From an uncultured virus (IMG/VR IMGVR_UViG_3300035498_000413) (Duplodnaviria > Heunggongvirae > Uroviricota > Caudoviricetes): a stretch of 20,000 nucleotides of DNA. Below are positions 2,462 through 13,728 of the stretch, one piece after another. Position 1 is the first letter of the stretch. Every line of letters begins with the position of its first letter. Under the pieces are notes generated by a model. It made no database searches and had not been told where the DNA came from. It worked only from the letters and a program-made list of their open reading frames with translations. The stretch spans positions 56,611 through 76,610 of IMG/VR virus record IMGVR_UViG_3300035498_000413, one strand, 5' to 3'. Both the position numbers and the translations under genes were made by a program.

Positions 2462-3934
2462 TTATCGAATCATGTCATACTTCTTTAAAGTTTCAAACAT
2501 CAGTTCTTTACCAGTCTTGCCGGTAAGAATAGAATCCAAAATGACCGGGGAGTAACCACTTACAAAAGAAACACCGTTCTTAGGAGCCTCAGGAATAAGG
2601 TTATGTCTAGCATTGACATTCCAATATACAAGATTAGGCATCTTGTATCCATATTCTTCCCATTTGTTTCTAATAGTCTCCATACCAGAGTAAAGGCCCT
2701 CTAAGCTTCTGTAGTTCGTCATACTATCAAATTCCATATCAGAGATAATGATAATATTCTCAGGAAGTTCAGACTGCGGGAGCTGATGCTTTAAGGCGGT
2801 ATTGAGCAGTAGATTAAATACAGCTTCAATATTAGTGTTATCGCAGAGCATATTATCATAGATATTAATTACCTGACTACAGAAATCTTGTCCAGTAATC
2901 TCTACTAGTTCAGGTCGGCTAGAAAAAGAAATATAATGGTTATAGAAAGGACTCCCAGGATTACACTTTCCAGCGCAATACAAACCTAACGAGATTGCAA
3001 CTTCGATCGGGCGTCCGTACATACTACCAGAAGTATCTACCACTGCAATACCATTGAATTTTGCGCCCTTAAAATAGTCGGTAAGATTTCCCCAATACTT
3101 GTTATATATTGCTCTATCTTCTAAGTCAGTATAGTGCATATCATAATAGCTCTTACCCATAACCTTATGCACTACATCAGCAGGATACAGAGTTCCAGCA
3201 TGGACTTTAGTATTCTTAGACTGAATAAATTCCTGATATCGCTCAGAAGTTTCCTTATTCTTCAAAAAAGCTTTAGAATACTTCAAACCAGCCTTAGAAG
3301 GAACAGCCGAGAAATCAATCTCATCCCATCTCTTATCACTCATAAGACGCTCAAGAACGTTAGAATAATTCCGCAATTCTGACAGAGTCTTACGATACAG
3401 CTTGGGAGTCATATGAAGATATTCTCGAATCTTCTTAGCCTTTCTTCGAGTTTCTTGACTAGAAGTATTTTCACTAGGAAGCCATTTAGCAAGAAGGCTA
3501 ATAGAATCTTCCTTAAGAGCGTTCTTAATATCCATCGCAAGCTGTTCTGCGATAAATTGCATAACCTCAGCTTCAACCGGAGTATCAAACAGCTCGAATA
3601 AATCGTCCCATCTACCAAACTCAGGAATATATCCAAGATTCCGCAGAACTGCATCAGGGTCATAATTAGCCAACCACTTCAAACAAACTCGGAAAAAGGC
3701 TCTTTCGCCCTGGCCTCCGCGCGCATCACGCAAGTAAAACAAGCACTTCAAAGCAAAAGTAGGATTCTCTCGATAAGCAGAAGCAAAAAGTGCAATCGTA
3801 TCTTCTTTACTACGCTCTCTATATGCGCCACCAAGGCTAAAGAGATCGAACACTCGATCTGCAGTAGTAGAATAACTCACGCCGCCATTTTCAGTATAAG
3901 TCTTAGATGCTTCAATCTTTAATTCATTTAACAT
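2462..3934 (-). CDS. DUF2828-family TROVE/Ro60-like + vWA protein
   Basis: Motifs TENG, RDARGGQGER, GRWDDL, AKWLP, vWA MIDAS VVDTSGSM, SDMEFD and VYWN. The start is moved to ATG 3934 (MLNELK) because of an AAGGAG RBS and because the longer ORF overlaps the promoter. Confidence 0.85.
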   Translation of the reverse strand: MLNELKIEASKTYTENGGVSYSTTADRVFDLFSLGGAYRERSKEDTIALFASAYRENPTFALKCLFYLRDARGGQGERAFFRVCLKWLANYDPDAVLRNLGYIPEFGRWDDLFELFDTPVEAEVMQFIAEQLAMDIKNALKEDSISLLAKWLPSENTSSQETRRKAKKIREYLHMTPKLYRKTLSELRNYSNVLERLMSDKRWDEIDFSAVPSKAGLKYSKAFLKNKETSERYQEFIQSKNTKVHAGTLYPADVVHKVMGKSYYDMHYTDLEDRAIYNKYWGNLTDYFKGAKFNGIAVVDTSGSMYGRPIEVAISLGLYCAGKCNPGSPFYNHYISFSSRPELVEITGQDFCSQVINIYDNMLCDNTNIEAVFNLLLNTALKHQLPQSELPENIIIISDMEFDSMTNYRSLEGLYSGMETIRNKWEEYGYKMPNLVYWNVNARHNLIPEAPKNGVSFVSGYSPVILDSILTGKTGKELMFETLKKYDMIR

Positions 3935-4000
3935 ATAAAATCTCCTTTTTGCTGACTTTTCTTTTTTCAAGAAAAGTATCTCTCTTAACTTTCTATATAC

Positions 4001-4029
4001 ATTATACAATTTTTATAATAAAATTTCAA
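4001..4029 (-). promoter_or_regulatory. sigmaA-type promoter
   Basis: TTGAAA-17 bp-TATAAT followed by GTATATAGAAAGTT. Confidence 0.75.
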
Positions 4030-4556
4030 GTAATTTCTTTTCTAAAATAAGTATAAACGCATCGACATGAAGGATGATAAGGAGGAATTTCTTTTATTTC
4101 AGAGACAGGGACTGGAGGTCCGTCAAACGTATCGGCGCAATAACCGCAACAATCCTCGGCATGAAGAATTTCGCCATACATATCAGGAATATCCTTAAAT
4201 AAGTTATAAGCAATTCTATTCACAATAGTATAACACTCATTATCAAGAATCAAAAGACAATGATATAGAGCTAGATTGCGGTCGCCGCAGTTCAGCCACT
4301 CCCGCACTCGAGATTCAAAGGTTTCCATATCATCATAGGTTACTGAAAATACAGCTATGTCGCCGGGGACTTCAATCTCGTATTCTGTAGTAATATATTT
4401 TATACACATAGCTAATACTTTTTCAAAAGAATCGTAGTATTCGTCGAACAATTCTTCACCTTTTCCTTCTGTTTTAAAATATCGAAGGACTGCTTTAGCT
4501 ATTGTGTTCTCTTGTTTTAAGAGATATTTCTCTATTTGTTCAATTAATTCTTTCAT
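4026..4556 (-). CDS. protein with SPP1 gp7/Mu gpF-like Zn-binding C-terminal motif
   Basis: CCGYC...PPYHPSCRC matches the C..C...PPxHPxCRC motif of MuF-type head morphogenesis proteins; short (176 aa). Confidence 0.55.
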   Translation of the reverse strand: MKELIEQIEKYLLKQENTIAKAVLRYFKTEGKGEELFDEYYDSFEKVLAMCIKYITTEYEIEVPGDIAVFSVTYDDMETFESRVREWLNCGDRNLALYHCLLILDNECYTIVNRIAYNLFKDIPDMYGEILHAEDCCGYCADTFDGPPVPVSEIKEIPPYHPSCRCVYTYFRKEIT

Positions 4557-4562
4557 TACTTT

Positions 4563-5153
4563 TCACGAACTGCTAGATGTTTGGCTACAATCTGTAGTAC
4601 AGGTATTTCCGCTTTTACACTTGGAGCTTGTTGTATTACCTGATTTACATAAGTTACAGCCTTTACAGCTATCACAAGTATTGCAACCAGTATTGCAAAC
4701 AGTACACTGATTTTTTTCATAAGTTAAATCATTAGCTTTATTGGCTAAATCTTCAAAATAAGAGCCATAAATATAAGTTTTTCCTGCTGTTGCTCTTTTG
4801 GAGCTTCCCACTAATGCAGCATAATTATTAAACCAAGATGCTTTAACTTCTTTATCAGTTTGTGTTGTAATTCCGCTGGTACTCTTGCCCCCAATACCTT
4901 TAGATCTTAAAGCTTTAACATATGCAGGAAGCCTATTCCAATCGGTAAGTTTAATTAATTCACTTCCAGCAGTTACCCCGCCATTCCATGCAAACTTATT
5001 AGAGCAATCGATACTATAAACTTCTTGAACTTTACAATACGTTTGTGCATCATCACAGGTTGTACAATTACCATTGTCACAATTATTACAACTATCATTA
5101 CAAGTATTGCAGCCATCGCAGTCTTGACAGCTAACACAAGTTTCACAACTCAT
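4563..5153 (-). CDS. Cys-rich (Cxx)n protein, candidate radical SAM substrate
   Basis: Start ATG 5153 (MSCETCVSCQDC) with AAGGAG RBS; 196 aa; 22 Cys in two terminal clusters; overlaps the rSAM stop codon. Confidence 0.75.
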   Translation of the reverse strand: MSCETCVSCQDCDGCNTCNDSCNNCDNGNCTTCDDAQTYCKVQEVYSIDCSNKFAWNGGVTAGSELIKLTDWNRLPAYVKALRSKGIGGKSTSGITTQTDKEVKASWFNNYAALVGSSKRATAGKTYIYGSYFEDLANKANDLTYEKNQCTVCNTGCNTCDSCKGCNLCKSGNTTSSKCKSGNTCTTDCSQTSSSS

Positions 5154-6798
5154 TTTTCTTCTCCTTTCTACAATAATTTTTATAATGACATTCATTATCT
5201 AAATAATCTTTAAAAACTAAGTTATTTTCTTCTACTAAACATTTCATCATATTAACAGCGTGTTTAAACAAAATTTGGTTCCACCTACAAGCTACTTCTG
5301 GATTGATAAAGAAATCTTCATAAGTATCATAGTTAGAAGAAGGACAACCATTGGTCTGGCACACCTGCCGTAAGGGGCAAGTTTTGCAGAGTTCAGGCTT
5401 CTCACACTCATTTATTGCTTCTTTTGTATATTCATCTAACAAAGCTTCATGCTTTTTTCTATCTACGCCATTCCAAATATCACCGATAAAGAAGAAACTA
5501 TTTCCATAAGAATCTTGCTCTTGACAAGCATAAATTCTACCATCATAAGAAATAGAAGCAGAAGTAGTACCAAGGCCGCATCTAAAAGGCTCGCGATGAA
5601 TAGAAACATTATTAAATCTATTATGATAGAACTGTAAATCTCTATTTAATATATCTTCATAAGTTTTATCAATACGAGAGAAAGAAGTAAAAGGTTTATG
5701 ACCCTCAGAAAACTGTAGATACATCAACGCAAAAATCTTCTCTACTTCTTCATCAAGTTTTTGAATATTTTCTTCTGACCAAGTTTCTCTACCATTAGGC
5801 ATTGTAAAGAAATTGCGGAAACCGTGCTCCATAGCGAAAACATACGAGTTAAAAGTGCCATCAACTGTAGCTTGGTCAATGGTTGCTCTCATAGTGGTGT
5901 TTGGAAAATTCTGTAATAAATAGGAAATATTGGAAGCCGCCGCCTCATAACTACTTTGCCCATTCCGCATTGGACGATTTTTATCTTGAACTTCTTTAGG
6001 ACCATCGAAAGAAAGATGGGGATAGATATCATACTTCCGCATAAAATCAATTCTTTCCTTGTCTAGCAGCGTCCCATTAGTGGTCATTGTAAGAGTAATA
6101 GTATCTCCATATTTCTCTCTAATATGCTTAGTCAGCGGCACAATAATACTATCCCACATTATAGTAGGTTCACCGCCAAAGTAAGTAATAGAAGGATCTT
6201 GCTTAATTCCAGTTAATTCTTCCTTTTGTTTAACATTATTCATTAAAAAATCAACGCTTTGTTCTGCAATTTCGTAAGTCATATAGTGGTTACATTGCTT
6301 AACAAAGCAGTTATGAACAGCAAAACCATCTGCAAAATAAGTATGTTCACTAGTCTCAAAATTATAAACCTGCGTAGTTTCAAAAATTTCTTCGACAGAT
6401 TCAATTATAGAACTATATAGCCCTATATCTCCAAATATGTAAGCCACATCGATCCCAGGCTTTAAATCTTTTACCTGGGTCCATTTATTTACTCCAGTTA
6501 AGATAGGATGATTTCCTGTAAGATAAATTTTATGTTTATCCTTCGTAACAATTTTAAATAAAGTTCTAGCTTCTCTTACAAAAATATTAAGAACTTTAGT
6601 TGTTTTTACTCTATGGGGAGCTTCTTCTTCAAACCCCATAACTCTATCAGCGATTTCAATATCTTCAATATTTTTCGTGCTACCATCAGCCATTAAGATC
6701 TTAGTGCCGGCTGGTGCGCAATACTTGCATTCTAGGTTACACGCGTCAGTGAGGTTCAAACACACGCTACTAAAAAACGGGTAATGTTCTTTATACAT
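5143..6798 (-). CDS. radical SAM/SPASM enzyme containing a mini-intein
   Basis: CNLECKY[intein]CF gives CxxxCxxC; also FGGEP, TTNGTLL, SFDG; SPASM region CGLG...DGRIYAC...IGDI...CKTCPLRQVCQTNGC...C. Confidence 0.92.
   Translation of the reverse strand: MYKEHYPFFSSVCLNLTDACNLECKYCAPAGTKILMADGSTKNIEDIEIADRVMGFEEEAPHRVKTTKVLNIFVREARTLFKIVTKDKHKIYLTGNHPILTGVNKWTQVKDLKPGIDVAYIFGDIGLYSSIIESVEEIFETTQVYNFETSEHTYFADGFAVHNCFVKQCNHYMTYEIAEQSVDFLMNNVKQKEELTGIKQDPSITYFGGEPTIMWDSIIVPLTKHIREKYGDTITLTMTTNGTLLDKERIDFMRKYDIYPHLSFDGPKEVQDKNRPMRNGQSSYEAAASNISYLLQNFPNTTMRATIDQATVDGTFNSYVFAMEHGFRNFFTMPNGRETWSEENIQKLDEEVEKIFALMYLQFSEGHKPFTSFSRIDKTYEDILNRDLQFYHNRFNNVSIHREPFRCGLGTTSASISYDGRIYACQEQDSYGNSFFFIGDIWNGVDRKKHEALLDEYTKEAINECEKPELCKTCPLRQVCQTNGCPSSNYDTYEDFFINPEVACRWNQILFKHAVNMMKCLVEENNLVFKDYLDNECHYKNYCRKEKKNEL
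6310..6720 (-). mobile_element. mini-intein (137 aa, no homing endonuclease)
   Basis: Block A CAPAGTKILMADG, block B LTGNHPIL, block F VYNFET, block G HTYFADGFAVHN followed by Cys+1. Confidence 0.92.
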
Positions 6799-6810: not shown

Positions 6811-6840
6811 AAAAAATAAAGGGAGGTTTCCCTCCCTTTT
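6811..6840 (-). terminator. intrinsic terminator after the suppressor tRNA (possibly bidirectional)
   Basis: AAAGGGAGG-GAAA-CCTCCCTTT hairpin with T tracts on both strands. Confidence 0.8.
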
Positions 6841-6844
6841 AGTC

Positions 6845-6919
6845 TGGCAGAGGCGCTTCAGAATCGAACCAAGACCCGAGGGGTTAGAGCCCTCTGTGCT
6901 ACCATTACACTACACCTCC
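6845..6919 (-). tRNA. amber suppressor tRNA, anticodon CUA (probably Gln-charged)
   Basis: GGAGGTG TA GTGT AATGGTA GCAC A GAGGG CT[CTA]AC CCCTC GGGT CTTGG TTCGATT CTGAAG CGCCTCT G CCA. G73; 1-nt bulge in the T stem. Confidence 0.9.
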
Positions 6920-7072: not shown

Positions 7073-7073
7073 G

Positions 7074-7159
7074 CGGAGCGAGAGGGATTCGAACCCCCGT
7101 GTCTCGTAGACACGCTAGTTTTCAAGACTAGGCTGTTATGACCGCTTCAGTACCGCTCC
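7074..7159 (-). tRNA. tRNA-Ser(UGA), no encoded CCA
   Basis: Cloverleaf with CTAGT CT[TGA]AA ACTAG, long variable arm and G73; followed by CGT rather than CCA. Confidence 0.93.
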
Positions 7160-7162
7160 GTT

Positions 7163-7236
7163 TGGAGGTAGATGCCTGAATCGAACAGGCAACAAGATAT
7201 TACAAGTATCTCGTTTTACCATTAAACTAATCTACC
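7163..7236 (-). tRNA. tRNA-Thr(UGU)
   Basis: GGTAGAT...AGATA CT[TGT]AA TATCT...TTCGATT...ATCTACC T CCA. Confidence 0.92.
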
Positions 7237-7359: not shown

Positions 7360-7388
7360 ATTATATGATATTTTTTTTGAAATTTCAA
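7360..7388 (-). promoter_or_regulatory. sigmaA-type promoter driving the Thr-Ser-ribozyme-suppressor tRNA unit
   Basis: TTGAAA-17 bp-TATAAT. Confidence 0.78.
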
Positions 7389-7420: not shown

Positions 7421-7450
7421 GAAAAAAGGGGACTCATAAACGAGTCCCCT
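7421..7450 (-). terminator. intrinsic terminator ending the structural cassette
   Basis: AGGGGACTC-GTTTAT-GAGTCCCCT followed by TTTTT; 4 nt after the TGA of the recoded gene. Confidence 0.85.
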
Positions 7451-7454
7451 AATA

Positions 7455-8639
7455 TCAAAAATCAAACCATGTAACACTATCTAAAGCAGAAGCTACGTCA
7501 TCCAAAGTGGTATTTTTCCCCAATAAATGATATTGAGAACTATAGATAAAGTAAGCTATATCTCCAGCGTTTATTACACCAGCTTTAATAGCTGCTCCGT
7601 TATAGTAAATACTTTTTGCGGTTTTAGAATTAATGCTTAAAGTAGCATTTGCAGGTACATCATAAGTAAATTTAACAGCAACGATGCCTCCAGTAGTTAA
7701 AGAATAGCTACTTAAAGAAGCTGTTTTGGCAGTAGTAGCTGCCGCTGTTGAGCACGTTACATATCCCTATCCCAGTGAAGCATTAGAGTAAGTAGAATTT
7801 GCATCACCAGTAGCCCACCAACCAGTATAAGTAGTTCCATTAATATTTACTCCAGAACGATAGGTTAATGTAACAAGATAATTGGCCCCATAATGCGTAG
7901 TTAATCTTGAAGTTGCCCATCTATAACAATCAATAGCGCCTGTAGTAGTACCATCGTCGAGAGTTAAATTTAAAGTAACATTAGTACTACTCACAGAAGC
8001 ATAAGGAAGCCAATAATTAATACAAAGTCCATCATATAATGCTTTGACACCATGTAAATTACCAGTCCAATCTGCGGTAGAAGCTGTCTGAGTGCCCATT
8101 ACAAAGCGATTATCAGTTAGATTGATAGTAACATTAGAAGAACCATCAAAAGAAGCAGAGCCCGACTCATCGCCGTCCACAGTTATTGTGCGGGCAGTGG
8201 TTAATTTAGGTACTGAGTCTATAGAAGCCCAAGTCGCGTCTCCACGTAAGAACTTAGATTGGCTACCTGCGGAAGGCTAGGGCACTAAACCCCTTGTACC
8301 TGCCGTGCTCGCACTTGCGCCAGTAAATGTATCAACATTATTCTAAACCACAGTCCAGTCTGTTGCTTTATAGGAAGAACTATACGCAGAAACACAAATA
8401 ATCATGTCTCCTGATTCTATACTTCCTATATTTGTTATACTAAAAGAGGCAGAGGCTTTGTAAGTCCAACCAACTTTATAATCCGTTAATCCTGTAATAT
8501 CGGCAGCACTTGAGACTGTACCCTTAAAGATAAGTCCTGATGCGAGGGTCGTCTCAATAATGTCAAGACGATCCCTCGCAGCAGTATCTTTTAGAGTGTA
8601 AGTGGTGCTGCCTACTTTAATATTAGCTAAATCTGCCAC
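7455..8639 (-). CDS. tail-fibre-like protein, 394 aa when TAG=Gln (3 internal TAG)
   Basis: Joins ORFs 8343..8639 and 7767..8180 plus an unlisted C-terminus in one frame, through TAGs at 8343-45, 8277-79 and 7767-69 (DWTVV*NN, GLVP*PSAGSQSKFLRGDATW, SNASLG*GYVTCSTAAAT). Ends at TGA right before the terminator. Confidence 0.88.
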
Positions 8640-8661
8640 TTACTTCACACCGTCCTTTTAA

Positions 8662-9861
8662 TTAGGAAACAGTAACAGTCTTTGTACTCTTTGTCAGAGT
8701 GGGAGTAATAGTATCTGCTGTACCCTTAAATGTACTAGAAACATCAGTAGCTTTAGTATAACTACCACTTACACTGACGTCACCTTCAGAACCACTAAAT
8801 GTAGCAGAAATTGTATTAGTATTCCCTGCGAAAGTGGCAGAATATTTATTACCGGTAAAGGTAGGAGCGGTAGCAGTAGCTGATTCAATACCAGTAACCA
8901 CAGTAATGCCGCTATCAAGAGAAGGTAGAGTACCAGCAGAAAATGTACCATCAGTGAAAGAACCAGCTTTAAAGCCAGTAGAAGTCACAGCGGCACTAGT
9001 AGAAGCAGTACCTAAAGTCAGAGTTTCACCACTCACAGTAGCAGTCACGCCAGAAGTAGCAAAATTACTAGTAGATTCAGATACGCTAGGAGCGGTATAA
9101 GAAGCCGCTGTATAAGAAGGAAGAGTACCCACAGAAGAAATATGCTTTACGGTAGTAGTAGAAGGAGTCACAGTAATTGTAGGAGCTGATACAGTGCCAC
9201 CAAGAGTAACGCCATTAGTATTATCAACAGAGAGTGTCACTTTACCAGAAGGAGTCACGCTACCAGATACCGAACCTTCAGGAGTAAATTTACCAGAAGA
9301 ACTCACAGTACTAGATTCAGTAGAAAGAGTGGTGGAAACAGTACCAGCAGGAGTATAAGAAGCGCCATTGATACCAGTAGTAACTTCAACAGTGCCAGAA
9401 GCTGAATCCTTATAAGCAAGAGCCTTTAAGCCAAGCGCAGATTGTAAAGAAGCTACGCTGATGTCAGCGTCGAGAGCGATATTAGCGATCTTACGGGTCT
9501 TAGGGACATATGCGCCTTCATCACCAAGTTCAGTAAATGCACCATCATAAAAAAGATACTCTTTAGTACCAACAATGATGACATCGCCACTCTCATATGT
9601 AGAAACATCAGTGGGCAACTCATCAAGCTTGCCTTTAAAATGCAGAACACCTGTTAAACCAGCAATAGCAGACTGAACTTGAGCACCTGTGACAAGACCA
9701 TTCTCGCCTTCAGCAACACCGCTAGTAGAAACATCCTTTAAAGAAGCATTACCCAGAGTGTCTAAAATACTACGTGCATCAGCGTCTTTTAATAAATAAG
9801 TAACGCCGCCTAGCTCAATTTGGCTTAGCACAGAGCCAGCAGTATATTCAAAAATTGACAT
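8662..9861 (-). CDS. Ser/Thr/Gly-rich virion fibre/decoration protein
   Basis: YLLKDADAR N-terminal motif, LHFKG module, TPxGxVS and APTFTG beta-type repeats; no TAG in frame. Confidence 0.75.
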   Translation of the reverse strand: MSIFEYTAGSVLSQIELGGVTYLLKDADARSILDTLGNASLKDVSTSGVAEGENGLVTGAQVQSAIAGLTGVLHFKGKLDELPTDVSTYESGDVIIVGTKEYLFYDGAFTELGDEGAYVPKTRKIANIALDADISVASLQSALGLKALAYKDSASGTVEVTTGINGASYTPAGTVSTTLSTESSTVSSSGKFTPEGSVSGSVTPSGKVTLSVDNTNGVTLGGTVSAPTITVTPSTTTVKHISSVGTLPSYTAASYTAPSVSESTSNFATSGVTATVSGETLTLGTASTSAAVTSTGFKAGSFTDGTFSAGTLPSLDSGITVVTGIESATATAPTFTGNKYSATFAGNTNTISATFSGSEGDVSVSGSYTKATDVSSTFKGTADTITPTLTKSTKTVTVS

Positions 9862-9883
9862 AAATTAAAAATCTCCTTATTTT

Positions 9884-10246
9884 TTATTTATAAAAACGAA
9901 TAAGCTCTTGAGAGTTATTCACTTCTACGCTAAATTTATTCTCTAATTCATCGGTAATAACTTTCTAACTTATCGCTCCATCTGTATTAGTTCCTAAACT
10001 TTGATAAAGTTTCATAATACCCGCGGAATCCTCAGATGCCTAGAGGTATGAAAGCTAGATCCATGGAGTAATACCATCACCGATTTTTATTTGTAGACCA
10101 TCTTTAGCGGTATCTACAAAACAAATTTGTCCATTATCAGGGACATAGGTATCTTCATAATTAAAATAATTATCTCTTTTTGAACCCTTATCTTTCATAA
10201 GAGTCCATAGTATACTTACGCCTGATTGGTCTAGGAATTTAGACAC
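9884..10246 (-). CDS. virion structural/fibre-associated protein, 120 aa when TAG=Gln (3 internal TAG)
   Basis: Extends ORF 10055..10246 through TAGs at 10055-57, 10040-42 and 9965-67: KIGDGITPWI*LSYL*ASEDSAGIMKLYQSLGTNTDGAIS*KVITDELENK...RFYK-TAA. This fills the gap to the next RBS. Confidence 0.85.
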
Positions 10247-10264
10247 TTAATTGTCCTCCTTCCC

Positions 10265-11017
10265 TTATACGCAAATAGTTTTAATTTCATCCTCGGTTAA
10301 GGCTTCAGGAATAACAGCCTCGATATCTTTCTTAACTGCTACTTCATGCTCAGGATCATCAGCAACATAATTACCAGAAGCTTTATCTTCTGCATTGTGA
10401 TAGAACATACCTTTTTGATACACGTTTAAACGTGAACCGATCCAGTCGCCATTAACCTCTTTATCAGCATAAATTTGAGCAACCATGCCATTGGCGCCAC
10501 CATCATTTACTCCAACGAAAGATTCAGTACCATCAGTATGAATAAATTTAGCGCCACCGCCAGAAGTTTCATTCCAAACAAGCGACTCGCCATTCACGTC
10601 TTTAATGCTCTAAGTAGTTTTATTATCAAGATCAGACTTAGTAGCATAATTACTCAGATCAATAGAGCCAGCAAGTTTATCCCAAGAATCTCCAGTCCAA
10701 ACAACATTATCACCAGGATTAATACCATTATCTGCGTCTGCATTTATGACATTATAAACGTCTCCAATAGCTGCATCAGCAGGTAATTCAGAATAATTAT
10801 CAATACTACCCTTATAAGTAAATACTCTAGTTACGTCTGTAGTAACTTCTGCAATAGCTTCTTGAAGTTTATCTTCTGTGACATAATCACTTAAGATTTC
10901 AACTAATTCAGAGCTAGTTTTATAGTTAGTTAAAGCTTCAGAAATAGCGTCTGCATTATAGCCCTTAATTTGCGCCCATAATGTAACTAAACCAGCTTGG
11001 TCAAGAACTTTTACCAT
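10265..11017 (-). CDS. virion structural/fibre-associated protein, 250 aa when TAG=Gln (1 internal TAG)
   Basis: ORFs 10610..11017 and 10265..10597 are in the same frame and joined by TAG 10610-12 (DNKTT*SIKDVNGE). Contains an FTYKGS...GDVYNV...WDKLAG module. Confidence 0.85.
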
Positions 11018-11033
11018 TTGATAACCTCCCCTT

Positions 11034-11378
11034 TTAATTTAATATTGAAAGAATTTCCTTTTCAGTTAAAGGAATATTCTTGTCAACCCATTCAAGATTT
11101 CCGTCGCTCCCTTTAGAAGGGATTTGACCGGCGGTCGCTGCACTAAAACCGTATAATTCTATGGCATCGCCGTATAAAGTCAAACTTTTATTATCAATAG
11201 AAATGGATGCTTCTCCCTCGAAGTATTTTAAATCATTCCAAGCAGTAGTGCCATCTCCAATTTTAAGTTTGCCTGTATCTTTTTCATATCCAGGCTCGCC
11301 AGATTCAAGTATTGGATTTAATCGAATCCATGTATTTGCAGAACCACGCTTAAATTTAATTATTGTTGTTTCAGCCAA
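11034..11378 (-). CDS. Mtd_N/hyaluronidase-N-like fibre anchor domain protein
   Basis: IKFKRG...W...NPILESGEPGYEKDTGKLKIGDGTTAWNDLKY is the characteristic motif; TTG start with GAGGAG RBS. Confidence 0.8.
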   Translation of the reverse strand: MAETTIIKFKRGSANTWIRLNPILESGEPGYEKDTGKLKIGDGTTAWNDLKYFEGEASISIDNKSLTLYGDAIELYGFSAATAGQIPSKGSDGNLEWVDKNIPLTEKEILSILN

Positions 11379-11401
11379 ACCTTTTCCACTCCTCTATAAT
11401 T

Positions 11402-11704
11402 TTAGTCTAAGTCGCCACCATCATAGAGATTGTTTTCACCTGAAGAAGAAAAGTTATCATCTAAATCTCCGCCATCATAAGAATTATTTTCGCCTGAAGA
11501 TGAACTTTCATTTCCAGTCGTACTCTACAAAATCCATATTTTTGAACCATTTAAAATATAAACATTAGAGTTTTCAATCACAAAAGCTTTAGAACCAACT
11601 CCACAATCAGTAGGCAAATCAGCTACATCACTTTGATAATCGCATAAGAACTCAGCCATATTATAGAAAGTCTTGCGAATATTATTTGTACTAGCTGTAA
11701 TCAT
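11402..11704 (-). CDS. small putative structural protein, 100 aa when TAG=Gln (1 internal TAG)
   Basis: ATG 11704 with GGGGAG RBS. Reading through TAG 11525-27 adds an acidic tail with two copies of SSSGENNxYDGGDLD, ending at TAA just before the next RBS. Confidence 0.8.
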
Positions 11705-11793: not shown

Positions 11794-11827
11794 AAAAGAA
11801 AGGCTTCCCTCGTAAGAAGGAAGCCTT
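11794..11827 (-). terminator. intrinsic terminator ending the large tRNA array
   Basis: AAGGCTTCC...GGAAGCCTT stem followed by TCTTTT. Confidence 0.75.
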
Positions 11828-11831
11828 AAAA

Positions 11832-11872
11832 CTAGATACTACAATCACCAGAAAGTTTGCTGTTGGTATCTA
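11832..11872 (-). ncRNA. ACAGCAA stem element copy 1 (unknown small RNA)
   Basis: TAGATAC-CA-ACAGCAA-loop-GTATCTAG, 3 nt after the tRNA-Ser(GCU) CCA. Confidence 0.6.
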
Positions 11873-11875
11873 CTA

Positions 11876-11965
11876 TGGCAGAGGATAAGAGATTCGAACT
11901 CTTGCGGCCGTAGCCCTATCAGTTTAGCGAACTGACCCCTTATAACCTAACTTGGGTAATCCTCT
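11876..11965 (-). tRNA. tRNA-Ser(GCU)
   Basis: AGAGGAT...TCAGT TC[GCT]AA ACTGA, long variable arm, ATCCTCT G CCA; C at position 33. Confidence 0.9.
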
Positions 11966-12022
11966 ATGTATCCTCTGCGTTTGCGTGGGCTTGGAACCAC
12001 CATCATCGGCCGCATTATACAT
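11966..12022 (-). ncRNA. twister ribozyme (type P1)
   Basis: ATGTA TAA TGC GGCC GATGATG GTGG TTCCAAGC CCAC GCAAAC GCA GAGGA TACAT. P1 ATGTA/TACAT, UAA cleavage loop, P2 TGC/GCA, P4 GTGG/CCAC, T1 TCC/GGA, T2 GC/GC. Confidence 0.88.
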
Positions 12023-12328: not shown

Positions 12329-12404
12329 TGGTCCTAGTGTAGGGATTTGAACCCTAGTTTTCCGATTATAAGTCGGAGGCTTTAACCTACTAAGCTACAC
12401 TAGA
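12329..12404 (-). tRNA. tRNA-Ile(UAU)
   Basis: TCTAGTG...TCCGA CT[TAT]AA TCGGA...TTCAAAT...CACTAGG A CCA. Confidence 0.9.
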
Positions 12405-13652: not shown

Positions 13653-13658
13653 ATATCG

Positions 13659-13728
13659 TGCAGGATAGAGGATTTGAACCTCTATTCTTTGCCTTTTGAG
13701 CAAATACGCTATCTTACGCCAATCCTGC
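13659..13728 (-). tRNA. atypical tRNA-like gene (formal anticodon AAA)
   Basis: Perfect acceptor (GCAGGAT/ATCCTGC), T (AGAGG/CCTCT) and anticodon (TTTGC/GCAAA) stems, but loop TCAAAAG, short GG-less D-loop and no CCA. Confidence 0.6.

Follow-up and report, generated by a model that had tools for sequence, protein, structure and literature searches.

Phages that use genetic code 15, in which the amber codon TAG is read as glutamine, have been described before. Borges et al. (bioRxiv 10.1101/2021.08.26.457843) reported code-15 phages of Firmicutes and Bacteroidetes with the alternative code in structural and lysis genes, variable TAG use in replication genes, and recoded modules that are scattered in the larger clades. 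They proposed that proteins with recoded stops cannot be made before the code changes and outlined a path that runs from low G+C content through the loss of TAG as a stop to the gain of a suppressor. Babkin et al. 2023 (PMC10607447) described phAss-1, which has 41 TAG-bearing open reading frames (ORFs), three tRNA-Sup-CTA genes, and no synthetase, and code 15 was confirmed in crAss-like phages by metaproteomics (Peters et al. 2022, PMC9523058). We analyzed a 20,000-nt stretch of DNA (the window) that forms the last 20 kb (C1:56611-76610) of a 76,610-bp virus record (IMG/VR IMGVR_UViG_3300035498_000413, contig C1). In the window, eight in-frame TAG codons split four genes of a six-gene minus-strand cassette that appears to encode tail fibers. 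Overall, we are confident that this is best explained as a code-15 cassette decoded by a tRNA-CUA of the phage itself, from which a late-gene gate may be inferred.

The phenomenon, the mechanism, and the interpretation have all been published, and the late-gene gate was proposed by Borges et al. Their phages and the present lineage are alike in carrying TAG in structural and lysis genes and variably in replication genes, in recoded modules scattered over a genome of ~130 kb, in a phage suppressor tRNA that usually comes with no synthetase, and in a code that may differ between close relatives. Nearest in size and layout are the large Firmicutes-associated clades Agate and Sapphire, likened here by size, hosts, and scattered modules only. 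Two TAG-recoded Agate phages have release factor 2 (RF2), whereas none was found in the present lineage, and the excerpted text of Borges et al. differs in making no mention of the reverse transcriptase of a diversity-generating retroelement (DGR).

The likeness to phAss-1 (PMC10607447) extends to a genome of ~136 kb, to TAG codons in several genes for DNA processing as well as in those for the virion, and to a Gln-type tRNA-Sup-CTA with no synthetase; Enterococcus phage EF1, moreover, is among the best RecJ hits in INPHARED. It also includes a virion block collinear with that of G001, a sibling IMG/VR record of 136,132 bp. This sibling is itself collinear with our contig, mostly at 94 to 97% nucleotide identity (blocks of 79 to 97%), and supplies ~60 kb that the contig lacks. 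Over the first 100 kb of phAss-1 (the last 36 kb were left out of the comparison), 38 of 130 G001 ORFs of at least 100 aa found a match, at only 22 to 53% amino acid identity. The present contig has one CUA tRNA rather than three, and neither blastn with the cassette nor tblastn with its 394-aa fiber protein gave a match in INPHARED. The phage lies outside the genus Phassvirus and, at most, in the same broad group as phAss-1. The crAss-like phages (PMC9523058) likewise read TAG as glutamine in late genes and encode a suppressor tRNA; they belong to an unrelated phage order that infects Bacteroidota, and the present lineage is known from sequence alone. New here are the lineage, with no close INPHARED relative and only a distant tie to phAss-1, and three local details: the tRNA unit is self-contained, two near-identical genomes differ fourfold in TAG load, and the DGR reverse transcriptase is heavily recoded.

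Eight in-frame TAG codons in a tail-fiber-like cassette

A preliminary description of this DNA had placed eight in-frame TAGs in four genes, and all of them were found exactly at the stated positions on the minus strand, where they split four of six tightly packed cassette genes between positions 11704 and 7455 of the window (Table 1). With TAG left open, six ORFs tile this interval with gaps of 16 to 23 nt. A Shine-Dalgarno motif precedes each ORF and hairpins flank the set, in agreement with the earlier view that the read-through ORFs run from ribosome-binding site to terminator. ATG 11704 is most likely the start of the first gene, in keeping with the end coordinate in the preliminary description; an upstream GTG at 11848 would extend it to 148 aa, and ATG 11704 is favored because the ORF from GTG 11848 would cross the terminator-like hairpin between tRNA-Ser(GCU) and the cassette. 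No strong sigma-70-type promoter match was found directly upstream of the cassette, unlike the tRNA unit considered below.

In frame 0 the six genes contain 8 TAG, 0 TAA, and 0 TGA codons. Their other two frames contain 25 + 25 TAG, 42 + 84 TAA, and 19 + 83 TGA, and from these off-frame proportions it follows that eight in-frame stops out of eight being TAG is not chance (by our estimate, <1e-4). The same eight TAGs are present in an independent contig, L004, that is 99% identical. Among 26 minus-strand ORFs of the window in the TAG-open list, which by construction cannot end in TAG, the 25 with a stop in the window end in TAA or TGA, and the 26th exits the window edge. The remaining TAGs within ORFs (6910, 16461, and 16771) lie only in spurious N-terminal extensions, the one at 6910 being inside the tRNA-CUA gene, and the preliminary statement that the long TAG-free ORFs of the window end in TAA or TGA was upheld.

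The coding density of the whole contig points the same way. ORFs of at least 200 aa cover 0.468 of it under code 11 and 0.652 with TAG open, which exceeds the coverage with TGA open (0.535) or TAA open (0.564) and answers the comparison of codes 11 and 15 that the earlier description had called for. At a cutoff of 100 aa, TAA-open reading gives 0.878 (176 ORFs) versus 0.862 (110 ORFs) for TAG-open reading; we take the surplus TAA-open ORFs at this cutoff to be partly spurious. In the 10- to 20-kb bin of the sibling G001, coding coverage rises from 0.15 to 0.98 once TAG is left open. The public databases have this lineage wrongly annotated; gene calls from relatives hold the 394-aa fiber as pieces of 290 and 242 aa. 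Annotation, host-range prediction, and the mining of receptor-binding proteins in these ~130-kb phages must use code 15.

Two cassette proteins have matches to known families. The 114-aa protein matches Pfam family PF18454 (Mtd_N, a tail-fiber N-terminal domain; E = 8e-13) and 15 PHROG families, 10 of which are in the tail category, and the 394-aa protein matches tail-fiber PHROGs (E = 2e-9). An AlphaFold2 model of the 394-aa protein, built from 51 sequences (predicted local distance difference test score, pLDDT, of 74), has 58 BFVD matches at E ≤ 1e-3, and many, among the matches listed, are named tail fiber, hyaluronidase tail fiber, or minor tail protein. A Foldseek search of the PDB with this model gave no match at E ≤ 0.001, the best being a Pa193 baseplate/tail-fiber complex at E = 3e-3. 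The N terminus of the 394-aa protein is shared with the 399-aa protein, which also gives a paralogous blastp alignment to a homolog of the 394-aa gene; the 250- and 120-aa proteins share theirs with each other. A C-terminal WFDF motif is common to the 394-aa protein and to a TAG-bearing 469-aa protein encoded at the contig start. The 399-, 120-, and 100-aa proteins have no family match and the 250-aa protein has only a weak match to a PHROG of unknown function (E = 2e-4), and these four are called fiber-like by position and shared termini only. Because of the Mtd_N, PHROG, and BFVD matches and the shared termini, it is reasonable to regard the six genes as a tail-fiber or receptor-binding cassette.

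TAG is read as glutamine

To identify the residue at each TAG, 34 IMG/VR loci related to the cassette were compared codon by codon with a query that carried X at the TAG positions. No homolog ends at any of the eight sites, and conserved sequence goes on past every TAG. At 8343 (WTVV-Q-NN), all 30 loci without TAG there have CAA or CAG. Site 9965 (GAIS-Q-K) is glutamine in 18 of 21 loci, TAG in 2, and Ile in 1, and site 11525 is glutamine in 5 loci and TAG in 4, L004 among them. At 7767 (SLG-Q-GY), TAG occurs in 3 loci, glutamine in 4, and Asn or Asp in 4 distant loci, and 38 of 47 database homologs have glutamine. The glutamine preference that the preliminary description had seen in the motifs WTVVQNN, SNASLGQGY, and GAISQK is therefore clear in relatives at all three. 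At 10610, one close relative (L007, 65% identity) has glutamine (CAA) and three distant loci have Val. The last three sites are occupied in relatives by Ala, Gly, Val, or Phe (8277), mostly by Asp (10040), or by mixed residues (10055); they are variable positions that speak neither for nor against glutamine. The expectation that homologs would favor glutamine at the eight sites thus holds clearly for four and through a single close relative for 10610, and does not extend to these three.

Tail fibers evolve fast, and conserved enzymes of the same contig were therefore also compared. In the RecJ-like protein, four of six TAG columns have a glutamine majority among 120 homologs (102, 109, 89, and 120 of 120), against a background of 27 glutamine-majority columns in 586; the other two, at residues 122 and 375, have a Leu or Lys majority. 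In the reverse transcriptase, the TAG at residue 234 corresponds to glutamine in 147 of 149 representatives and that at residue 231 in 95 of 149. Log-odds were summed over 28 TAG columns drawn from RecJ, the reverse transcriptase, and the 394-aa fiber gene. Glutamine was the sole residue with a positive score (+35.4 bits), with Arg next at -18.3 and Leu at -59.4. Taken together, the alignments indicate that TAG is a sense codon read as glutamine.

A suppressor tRNA in a unit downstream of the cassette

The decoding mechanism, absent from the preliminary description, was found ~540 nt downstream of the cassette, where a tRNA with anticodon CUA occupies the final position in a tRNA-Thr/Ser/CUA unit (Table 1). 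L004 and L005 conserve this unit from promoter to terminator. When tRNA-CUA was compared with the 190 non-suppressor tRNAs of the window and the 34 loci, the nearest were the tRNA-Gln(CUG) of related phages, at 0.65 to 0.73 identity, and its anticodon loop, CUCUAAC, is one base apart from the CUCUGAC of tRNA-Gln(CUG). The Escherichia coli suppressor supE (the glnV amber suppressor) has a tRNA-Gln(CUG)-type body with a one-base anticodon change to CUA and inserts glutamine at UAG. We take the one-base loop change in tRNA-CUA (G36 to A) to be the supE-making change; tRNA-CUA looks like a tRNA-Gln(CUG) that carries this single substitution and would be charged with glutamine. It differs from supE in being phage encoded and dedicated and in an acceptor stem unlike those of the tRNA-Gln genes compared; the Gln-tRNA of the host may be made by transamidation instead of by glutaminyl-tRNA synthetase (GlnRS). 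ARAGORN labels the gene "Pyl," which is its default name for anticodon CUA and no evidence for pyrrolysine.

A G73 and a weak 1-72 pair are known features of bacterial tRNA-Gln. tRNA-CUA has G73 and a G1-U72 pair. The CUA tRNAs of L007, L020, and L022 have different bodies, yet they carry G73 with U-C, C-U, or U-U at 1-72, and all seven CUA tRNAs combine G73 with a weak or mismatched 1-72 pair. tRNA-CUA is identical in L004 to L006, which says little about selection because the whole 680-nt tRNA region is 96% conserved overall in a comparison with flanking divergence.

Counts of TAGs per locus, taken from tblastn alignments to the six cassette proteins, were set beside the tRNA content of the loci. 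L004 and L020 have a CUA tRNA and 8 in-frame TAGs each, and L005 to L007 and L022 have a CUA tRNA and 1 to 2 TAGs. L008 to L019 and L021 have 0 to 1 TAG; a tRNA scan that covered 12 of these 13 loci (L021 was left out) detected no TAG-reading tRNA. L023 and L028 are exceptions, with 3 to 4 TAGs and no CUA tRNA in the 12-kb locus. Among the fetched loci, a CUA tRNA and in-frame TAGs tend to co-occur, with exceptions.

Table 1. Features of the fiber cassette and the adjoining tRNA unit (positions in the 20,000-nt window)
Feature	Position	Strand	In-frame TAG	Remarks
Terminator-like hairpin between tRNA-Ser(GCU) and cassette	11800..11827	-		12 pairs, T-run
First cassette gene, 100 aa	11402..11704	-	11525	ATG 11704; Shine-Dalgarno AAAGGGGAG
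114-aa gene	11034..11378	-	none	Mtd_N domain
250-aa fiber-like gene	10265..11017	-	10610	
120-aa gene	9884..10246	-	10055, 10040, 9965	
399-aa fiber-like gene	8662..9861	-	none	
394-aa tail-fiber-like gene	7455..8639	-	8343, 8277, 7767	
Terminator-like hairpin directly 3' of last cassette gene	7427..7450	-		Hairpin search
Putative near-consensus sigma-70-type promoter	7360..7388	-		TTGAAA-17-TATAAT, 11/12; consensus match only
tRNA-Thr(UGU)	7163..7236	-		tRNA scans
tRNA-Ser(UGA)	7073..7159	-		tRNA scans
Amber suppressor tRNA, anticodon CUA, supE-like	6845..6919	-		CCA encoded; ARAGORN, Rfam
Terminator-like hairpin closing tRNA unit	6818..6839	-		Hairpin search

Distribution of TAG across the contig and its sibling

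On the contig, 91 TAGs occur in 22 of the 55 genes examined, compared with 510 CAA or CAG codons. The reverse transcriptase writes 19 of its 28 glutamine codons as TAG. RuvC and a GIY-YIG fusion protein have nine TAGs each, a 445-aa surface protein has seven, RecJ six, the 469-aa fiber-like protein five, the DGR target gene four, and PhoH three, with two each in the endolysin and a second GIY-YIG endonuclease. The polymerase, helicases, primase, both topoisomerase subunits, ligase, NrdD/NrdG, RNA ligase, and a radical-SAM gene are TAG free. TAG is distributed unevenly over the 55 genes (chi-square = 222.7, 54 degrees of freedom, P = 2e-22), with 33 TAG-free genes versus 14.4 expected, and it makes up 36% of the glutamine codons in fiber-like genes and 8% in replication genes. 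The earlier proposal that TAG is concentrated in the structural cassette is accurate within the window and not contig-wide, given the reverse transcriptase, RuvC, RecJ, GIY-YIG, PhoH, and endolysin genes.

The virion and packaging block is found in the sibling G001, where it matches tape-measure, tail, and virion-structural proteins and the large terminase. It contains 246 TAG versus 352 CAA + CAG (41% of glutamine codons), TAG is carried by 26 of its 29 ORFs, and the virion genes at the top end hold 24 to 66 each, 66 being the maximum. The replication block of G001 has 36 TAG versus 369 CAA + CAG, and 30 of its 42 ORFs are TAG free. Because the virion block is far richer in TAG, the window cassette is an outlying part, with only light recoding, of a virion gene set that is otherwise recoded heavily. 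This makes the lineage a well-documented case with a clean internal contrast between TAG-free replication genes and a virion block at 41% TAG. What is known of how phages recode is unchanged by it, and the problem posed by release factor 1 (RF1) when the phage has no release factor of its own is met again.

A late-gene gate and its alternatives

We propose that the eight TAGs in the four fiber genes would be translated as glutamine by the phage's own tRNA-CUA, charged by a host enzyme, which is presumed because no phage synthetase was found. As long as suppressor tRNA is scarce, the four cassette proteins would be cut short by host RF1, and full-length fibers, like the recoded virion proteins of G001, would be made only once tRNA-CUA had accumulated. 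That TAG encodes glutamine through this tRNA is, in our view, highly probable. The uneven distribution of TAG fits a late-gene gate, and the chance that it reflects a timing gate under selection, rather than TAG being merely tolerated in late genes, we put at even; confidence is lower here because of the G001 cassette, the sites one transition from CAG, the TAG-bearing genes that are not classic late ones, and the missing promoter motif.

Several observations weigh against this account. Sites 8277, 10040, and 10055 have no glutamine in relatives, one high-scoring segment pair excepted, and the TAG columns of the reverse transcriptase have a glutamine majority in just 3 of 19; as a control, the ordinary glutamine codons of this diverged protein fall in glutamine-majority columns in 1 of 9 cases, no better than its TAG columns. 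tRNA-CUA has the lowest Rfam score among the window tRNAs (38.1 bits, cutoff 29), an irregular T-stem, and a fold energy no better than that of shuffled sequences (z = -0.38), and its charging with glutamine is predicted from sequence only. The RF2, RF1 antagonist, or aminoacyl-tRNA synthetase that the preliminary description had suggested looking for elsewhere in the genome did not turn up: neither the RF domain PF03462 nor the GlnRS/glutamyl-tRNA synthetase domain PF00749 was found in four related records (G000, G001, G002, and G003), one of which, G002, is 131.5 kb long with direct terminal repeats. Genes with up to 66 TAGs (G001) would have to overcome RF1 with no release factor from the phage. 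The timing gate meets further difficulties. The cassette of G001 has just 2 TAGs, in two of five genes, and a strict gate on this cassette is therefore not conserved. Genes outside the classic late class, namely RecJ (6), RuvC (9), and homing endonucleases, also contain TAG, and at several cassette sites a single transition separates TAG from the CAG that close relatives carry. No late-promoter motif emerged from an 8-mer enrichment upstream of 33 TAG-bearing versus 21 TAG-free G001 genes (best P = 0.10), and sigma-70-like sites scoring at least 10/12 were found for 2 of the 33 and 5 of the 21, which is not convincing.

The main rival accepts TAG as glutamine and makes the uneven distribution a by-product, and we grant it a substantial chance that stops short of even. 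CAG would drift to TAG where the suppressor is abundant, with C-to-T changes in this AT-rich phage purged only from genes needed before that point, and the cassette TAGs would be recent, nearly neutral substitutions. The load of 8 TAGs in the cassettes of the window and L004 versus 2 in the 94 to 97% identical sibling agrees with this, as do the CAG that the closest relatives carry at 8343, one transition away, the three TAG sites at freely variable positions, the TAGs in nonstructural genes, and the drift-like path described by Borges et al. (bioRxiv 10.1101/2021.08.26.457843). However, the TAG distribution is far from random (P = 2e-22), and long replication genes with 20 to 30 glutamine codons have zero TAG, so that selection against TAG in early genes is real. 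Since gate and by-product predict the same sequence pattern, sequence cannot separate them; two near-identical genomes with a fourfold difference in cassette TAGs could serve to test a timing gate against tolerated drift.

The remaining alternatives dispute the reading of TAG itself. Some TAGs could be leaky stops, at which programmed partial read-through yields a short and a long product with no full reassignment. We consider this improbable: relatives' conserved sequence continues beyond every TAG, the catalytically essential glutamine at reverse transcriptase residue 234 is written TAG, and G001 virion genes with 24 to 66 TAGs need near-complete suppression. In favor of leaky stops are the presumed presence of host RF1, the failure to find a gene for RF2 or an RF1 antagonist, the nonconserved positions of 8277, 10040, and 10055, and a contig gene (C1 6298-6930) in which a TAG comes three codons ahead of the TAA. 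That TAG encodes Leu, Ala, Trp, Tyr, Lys, or pyrrolysine instead is very hard to sustain. The "Pyl" label of ARAGORN and the Leu- or Lys-majority columns at RecJ residues 122 and 375 could be cited for it, but all 19 non-Gln residues have negative log-odds over the 28 columns, and tRNA-CUA resembles tRNA-Gln(CUG) and not the Leu or Ser types with a long extra arm. Finally, the four genes are split under code 11 and exist in database calls from relatives as 290- and 242-aa pieces, as pseudogenes or assembly errors would be. We reject this explanation, given that the interruptions are only TAG and never TAA or TGA, that they recur in the independent contig L004, that the 91 TAGs in 22 of 55 contig genes include conserved active-site positions, and that a matching suppressor tRNA is present.

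If TAG is glutamine and decoded by tRNA-CUA, the code switch might in addition be layered and still spreading, which we regard as doubtful. Cassettes with 8 and 2 TAGs at 94 to 97% identity suggest that recoding may spread outward from the saturated virion block, and this outward move into receptor-binding genes may keep step with their fast turnover; the suppressor tRNA unit, with its near-consensus host-type promoter, sits at the end of an accessory fiber cassette. Were this layered switch real, the DGR reverse transcriptase would be the gene most tightly locked to the code, and mutagenic retrohoming would be confined to late infection.

Genome context and other observations

The record has a G+C content of 35%, no terminal repeat, and a CheckV completeness of 45%, and nearly all window genes are on the minus strand. 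It represents a tailed phage that uses genetic code 15, of a lineage distant from phAss-1, with a full genome of ~110 to 136 kb. PHROG and Pfam scans of the contig, translated with TAG as glutamine, returned the gene set of a large tailed phage. It includes NrdG and NrdD of an anaerobic ribonucleotide reductase, the latter interrupted by homing endonucleases and an intein; a PolIII-alpha-type polymerase, a Dda-like helicase, a primase, and an intein-bearing DnaB; DNA ligase and the two subunits of topoisomerase II; and a RecJ-like exonuclease and a RuvC resolvase. PhoH, an amidase endolysin, and the reverse transcriptase are present as well, as are genes for RNA ligase, polynucleotide kinase, and phosphatase, and the contig has 11 tRNA genes. 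The same scans detected no capsid, portal, or terminase genes on the 76.6-kb contig. The best named relatives of RecJ in INPHARED, at 33 to 36% identity, are Geobacillus virus E3, SPbeta-like Bacillus phages, and Enterococcus phage EF1. The host is probably a member of the Bacillota, based only on these RecJ matches to Bacillus, Enterococcus, and Geobacillus phages.

A complete DGR occupies C1 3028-6313 (L001), with its variable repeat at 3909-4030, template repeat at 4716-4837, and reverse transcriptase at 5114-6313. The two repeats are 122 nt long and 85% identical, and in their alignment it is template adenines that differ. The 338-aa target gene, which has four TAGs, holds the variable repeat at its 3' end, and the ORF in the Avd position has none. 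A 445-aa secreted protein (C1 46492-47829, minus strand) with seven TAGs adjoins the endolysin; at its C terminus a sortase-type motif, VPQTG, precedes a hydrophobic stretch and then a basic tail. In G001, a 234-aa gene with four in-frame TAGs (45968-46672, minus strand; L040 5968-6672) matches, at E = 1.7e-25, a PHROG that bears the label "sigma factor," which Pfam does not support. If the label is right, a late transcription factor would itself await the suppressor, and the code switch would stand upstream of late transcription.

The phage carries an unusually heavy load of selfish elements. NrdD is broken into three ORFs by GIY-YIG and HNH homing endonuclease genes (C1 12269-17305), and the first of the three ORFs is much longer than its NrdD-matching part and is read as containing an intein. 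DnaB has an intein-like insert (C1 30666-33026), and the large terminase and tape-measure genes of G001 are likewise interrupted by HNH genes. The TAG-free radical-SAM gene (window 5143-6798, minus strand; Radical_SAM, Fer4_12, Hom_end_hint) is interrupted by a Hint/intein module beside its Cys-rich N-terminal motif. A very Cys-rich 210-aa protein with no family match lies 3' of it (window 4563-5195, minus strand), and the two may act as a pair in peptide modification. DUF2828 and DUF7788 domains are found in a 515-aa protein (window 2462-4009, minus strand) that has the PHROG label "RNA-binding protein," and the tRNA region of L020 contains a subthreshold YrlA Y-RNA-like match (3046-3152, 40.4 bits versus a cutoff of 69). 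Considered alongside the genes for RNA ligase, kinase, and phosphatase, these hint at an RNA repair or quality-control module.

Other elements were noted among the tRNA genes. Phage tRNAs with theta ribozymes on their 3' side have been described (PMC10879173, a text that does not use the word "twister"); Rfam E-value scans detected no self-cleaving ribozyme beside tRNA-CUA. A twister-P1 ribozyme match lies at 11967-12021 of the window (minus strand; 50.9 bits versus a cutoff of 67.2, E = 2.5e-9), with its core kept and one hairpin missing, and ends 1 nt before the 5' end of tRNA-Ser(GCU) (11876-11965, minus strand). The pair of twister-P1 match and tRNA occurs again in L005 (3173-3224, with the tRNA at 3226), and by analogy the element could act as a self-cleaving part of tRNA processing. 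In L007, the relative at 73% identity, a full-length ROOL RNA (588-1165; 322 bits, cutoff 99.1) separates tRNA-Gln from tRNA-Leu; no ROOL match was found in the window. Nine loci without a CUA tRNA (L008 to L012, L014, L016, L017, and L019) share a conserved tRNA with an 8-nt anticodon loop, GUUAAAAG. ARAGORN assigns this tRNA (e.g., L008 2588-2661) the four-base anticodon "taaa," and it scores 42.5 bits with the Rfam tRNA model in L009. The window also encodes a tRNA-Phe with the unusual anticodon AAA (A34; 13658-13728, minus strand) and a tRNA-Ile(UAU) (12329-12404), which fit an AT-rich phage that supplements the decoding capacity of its host.

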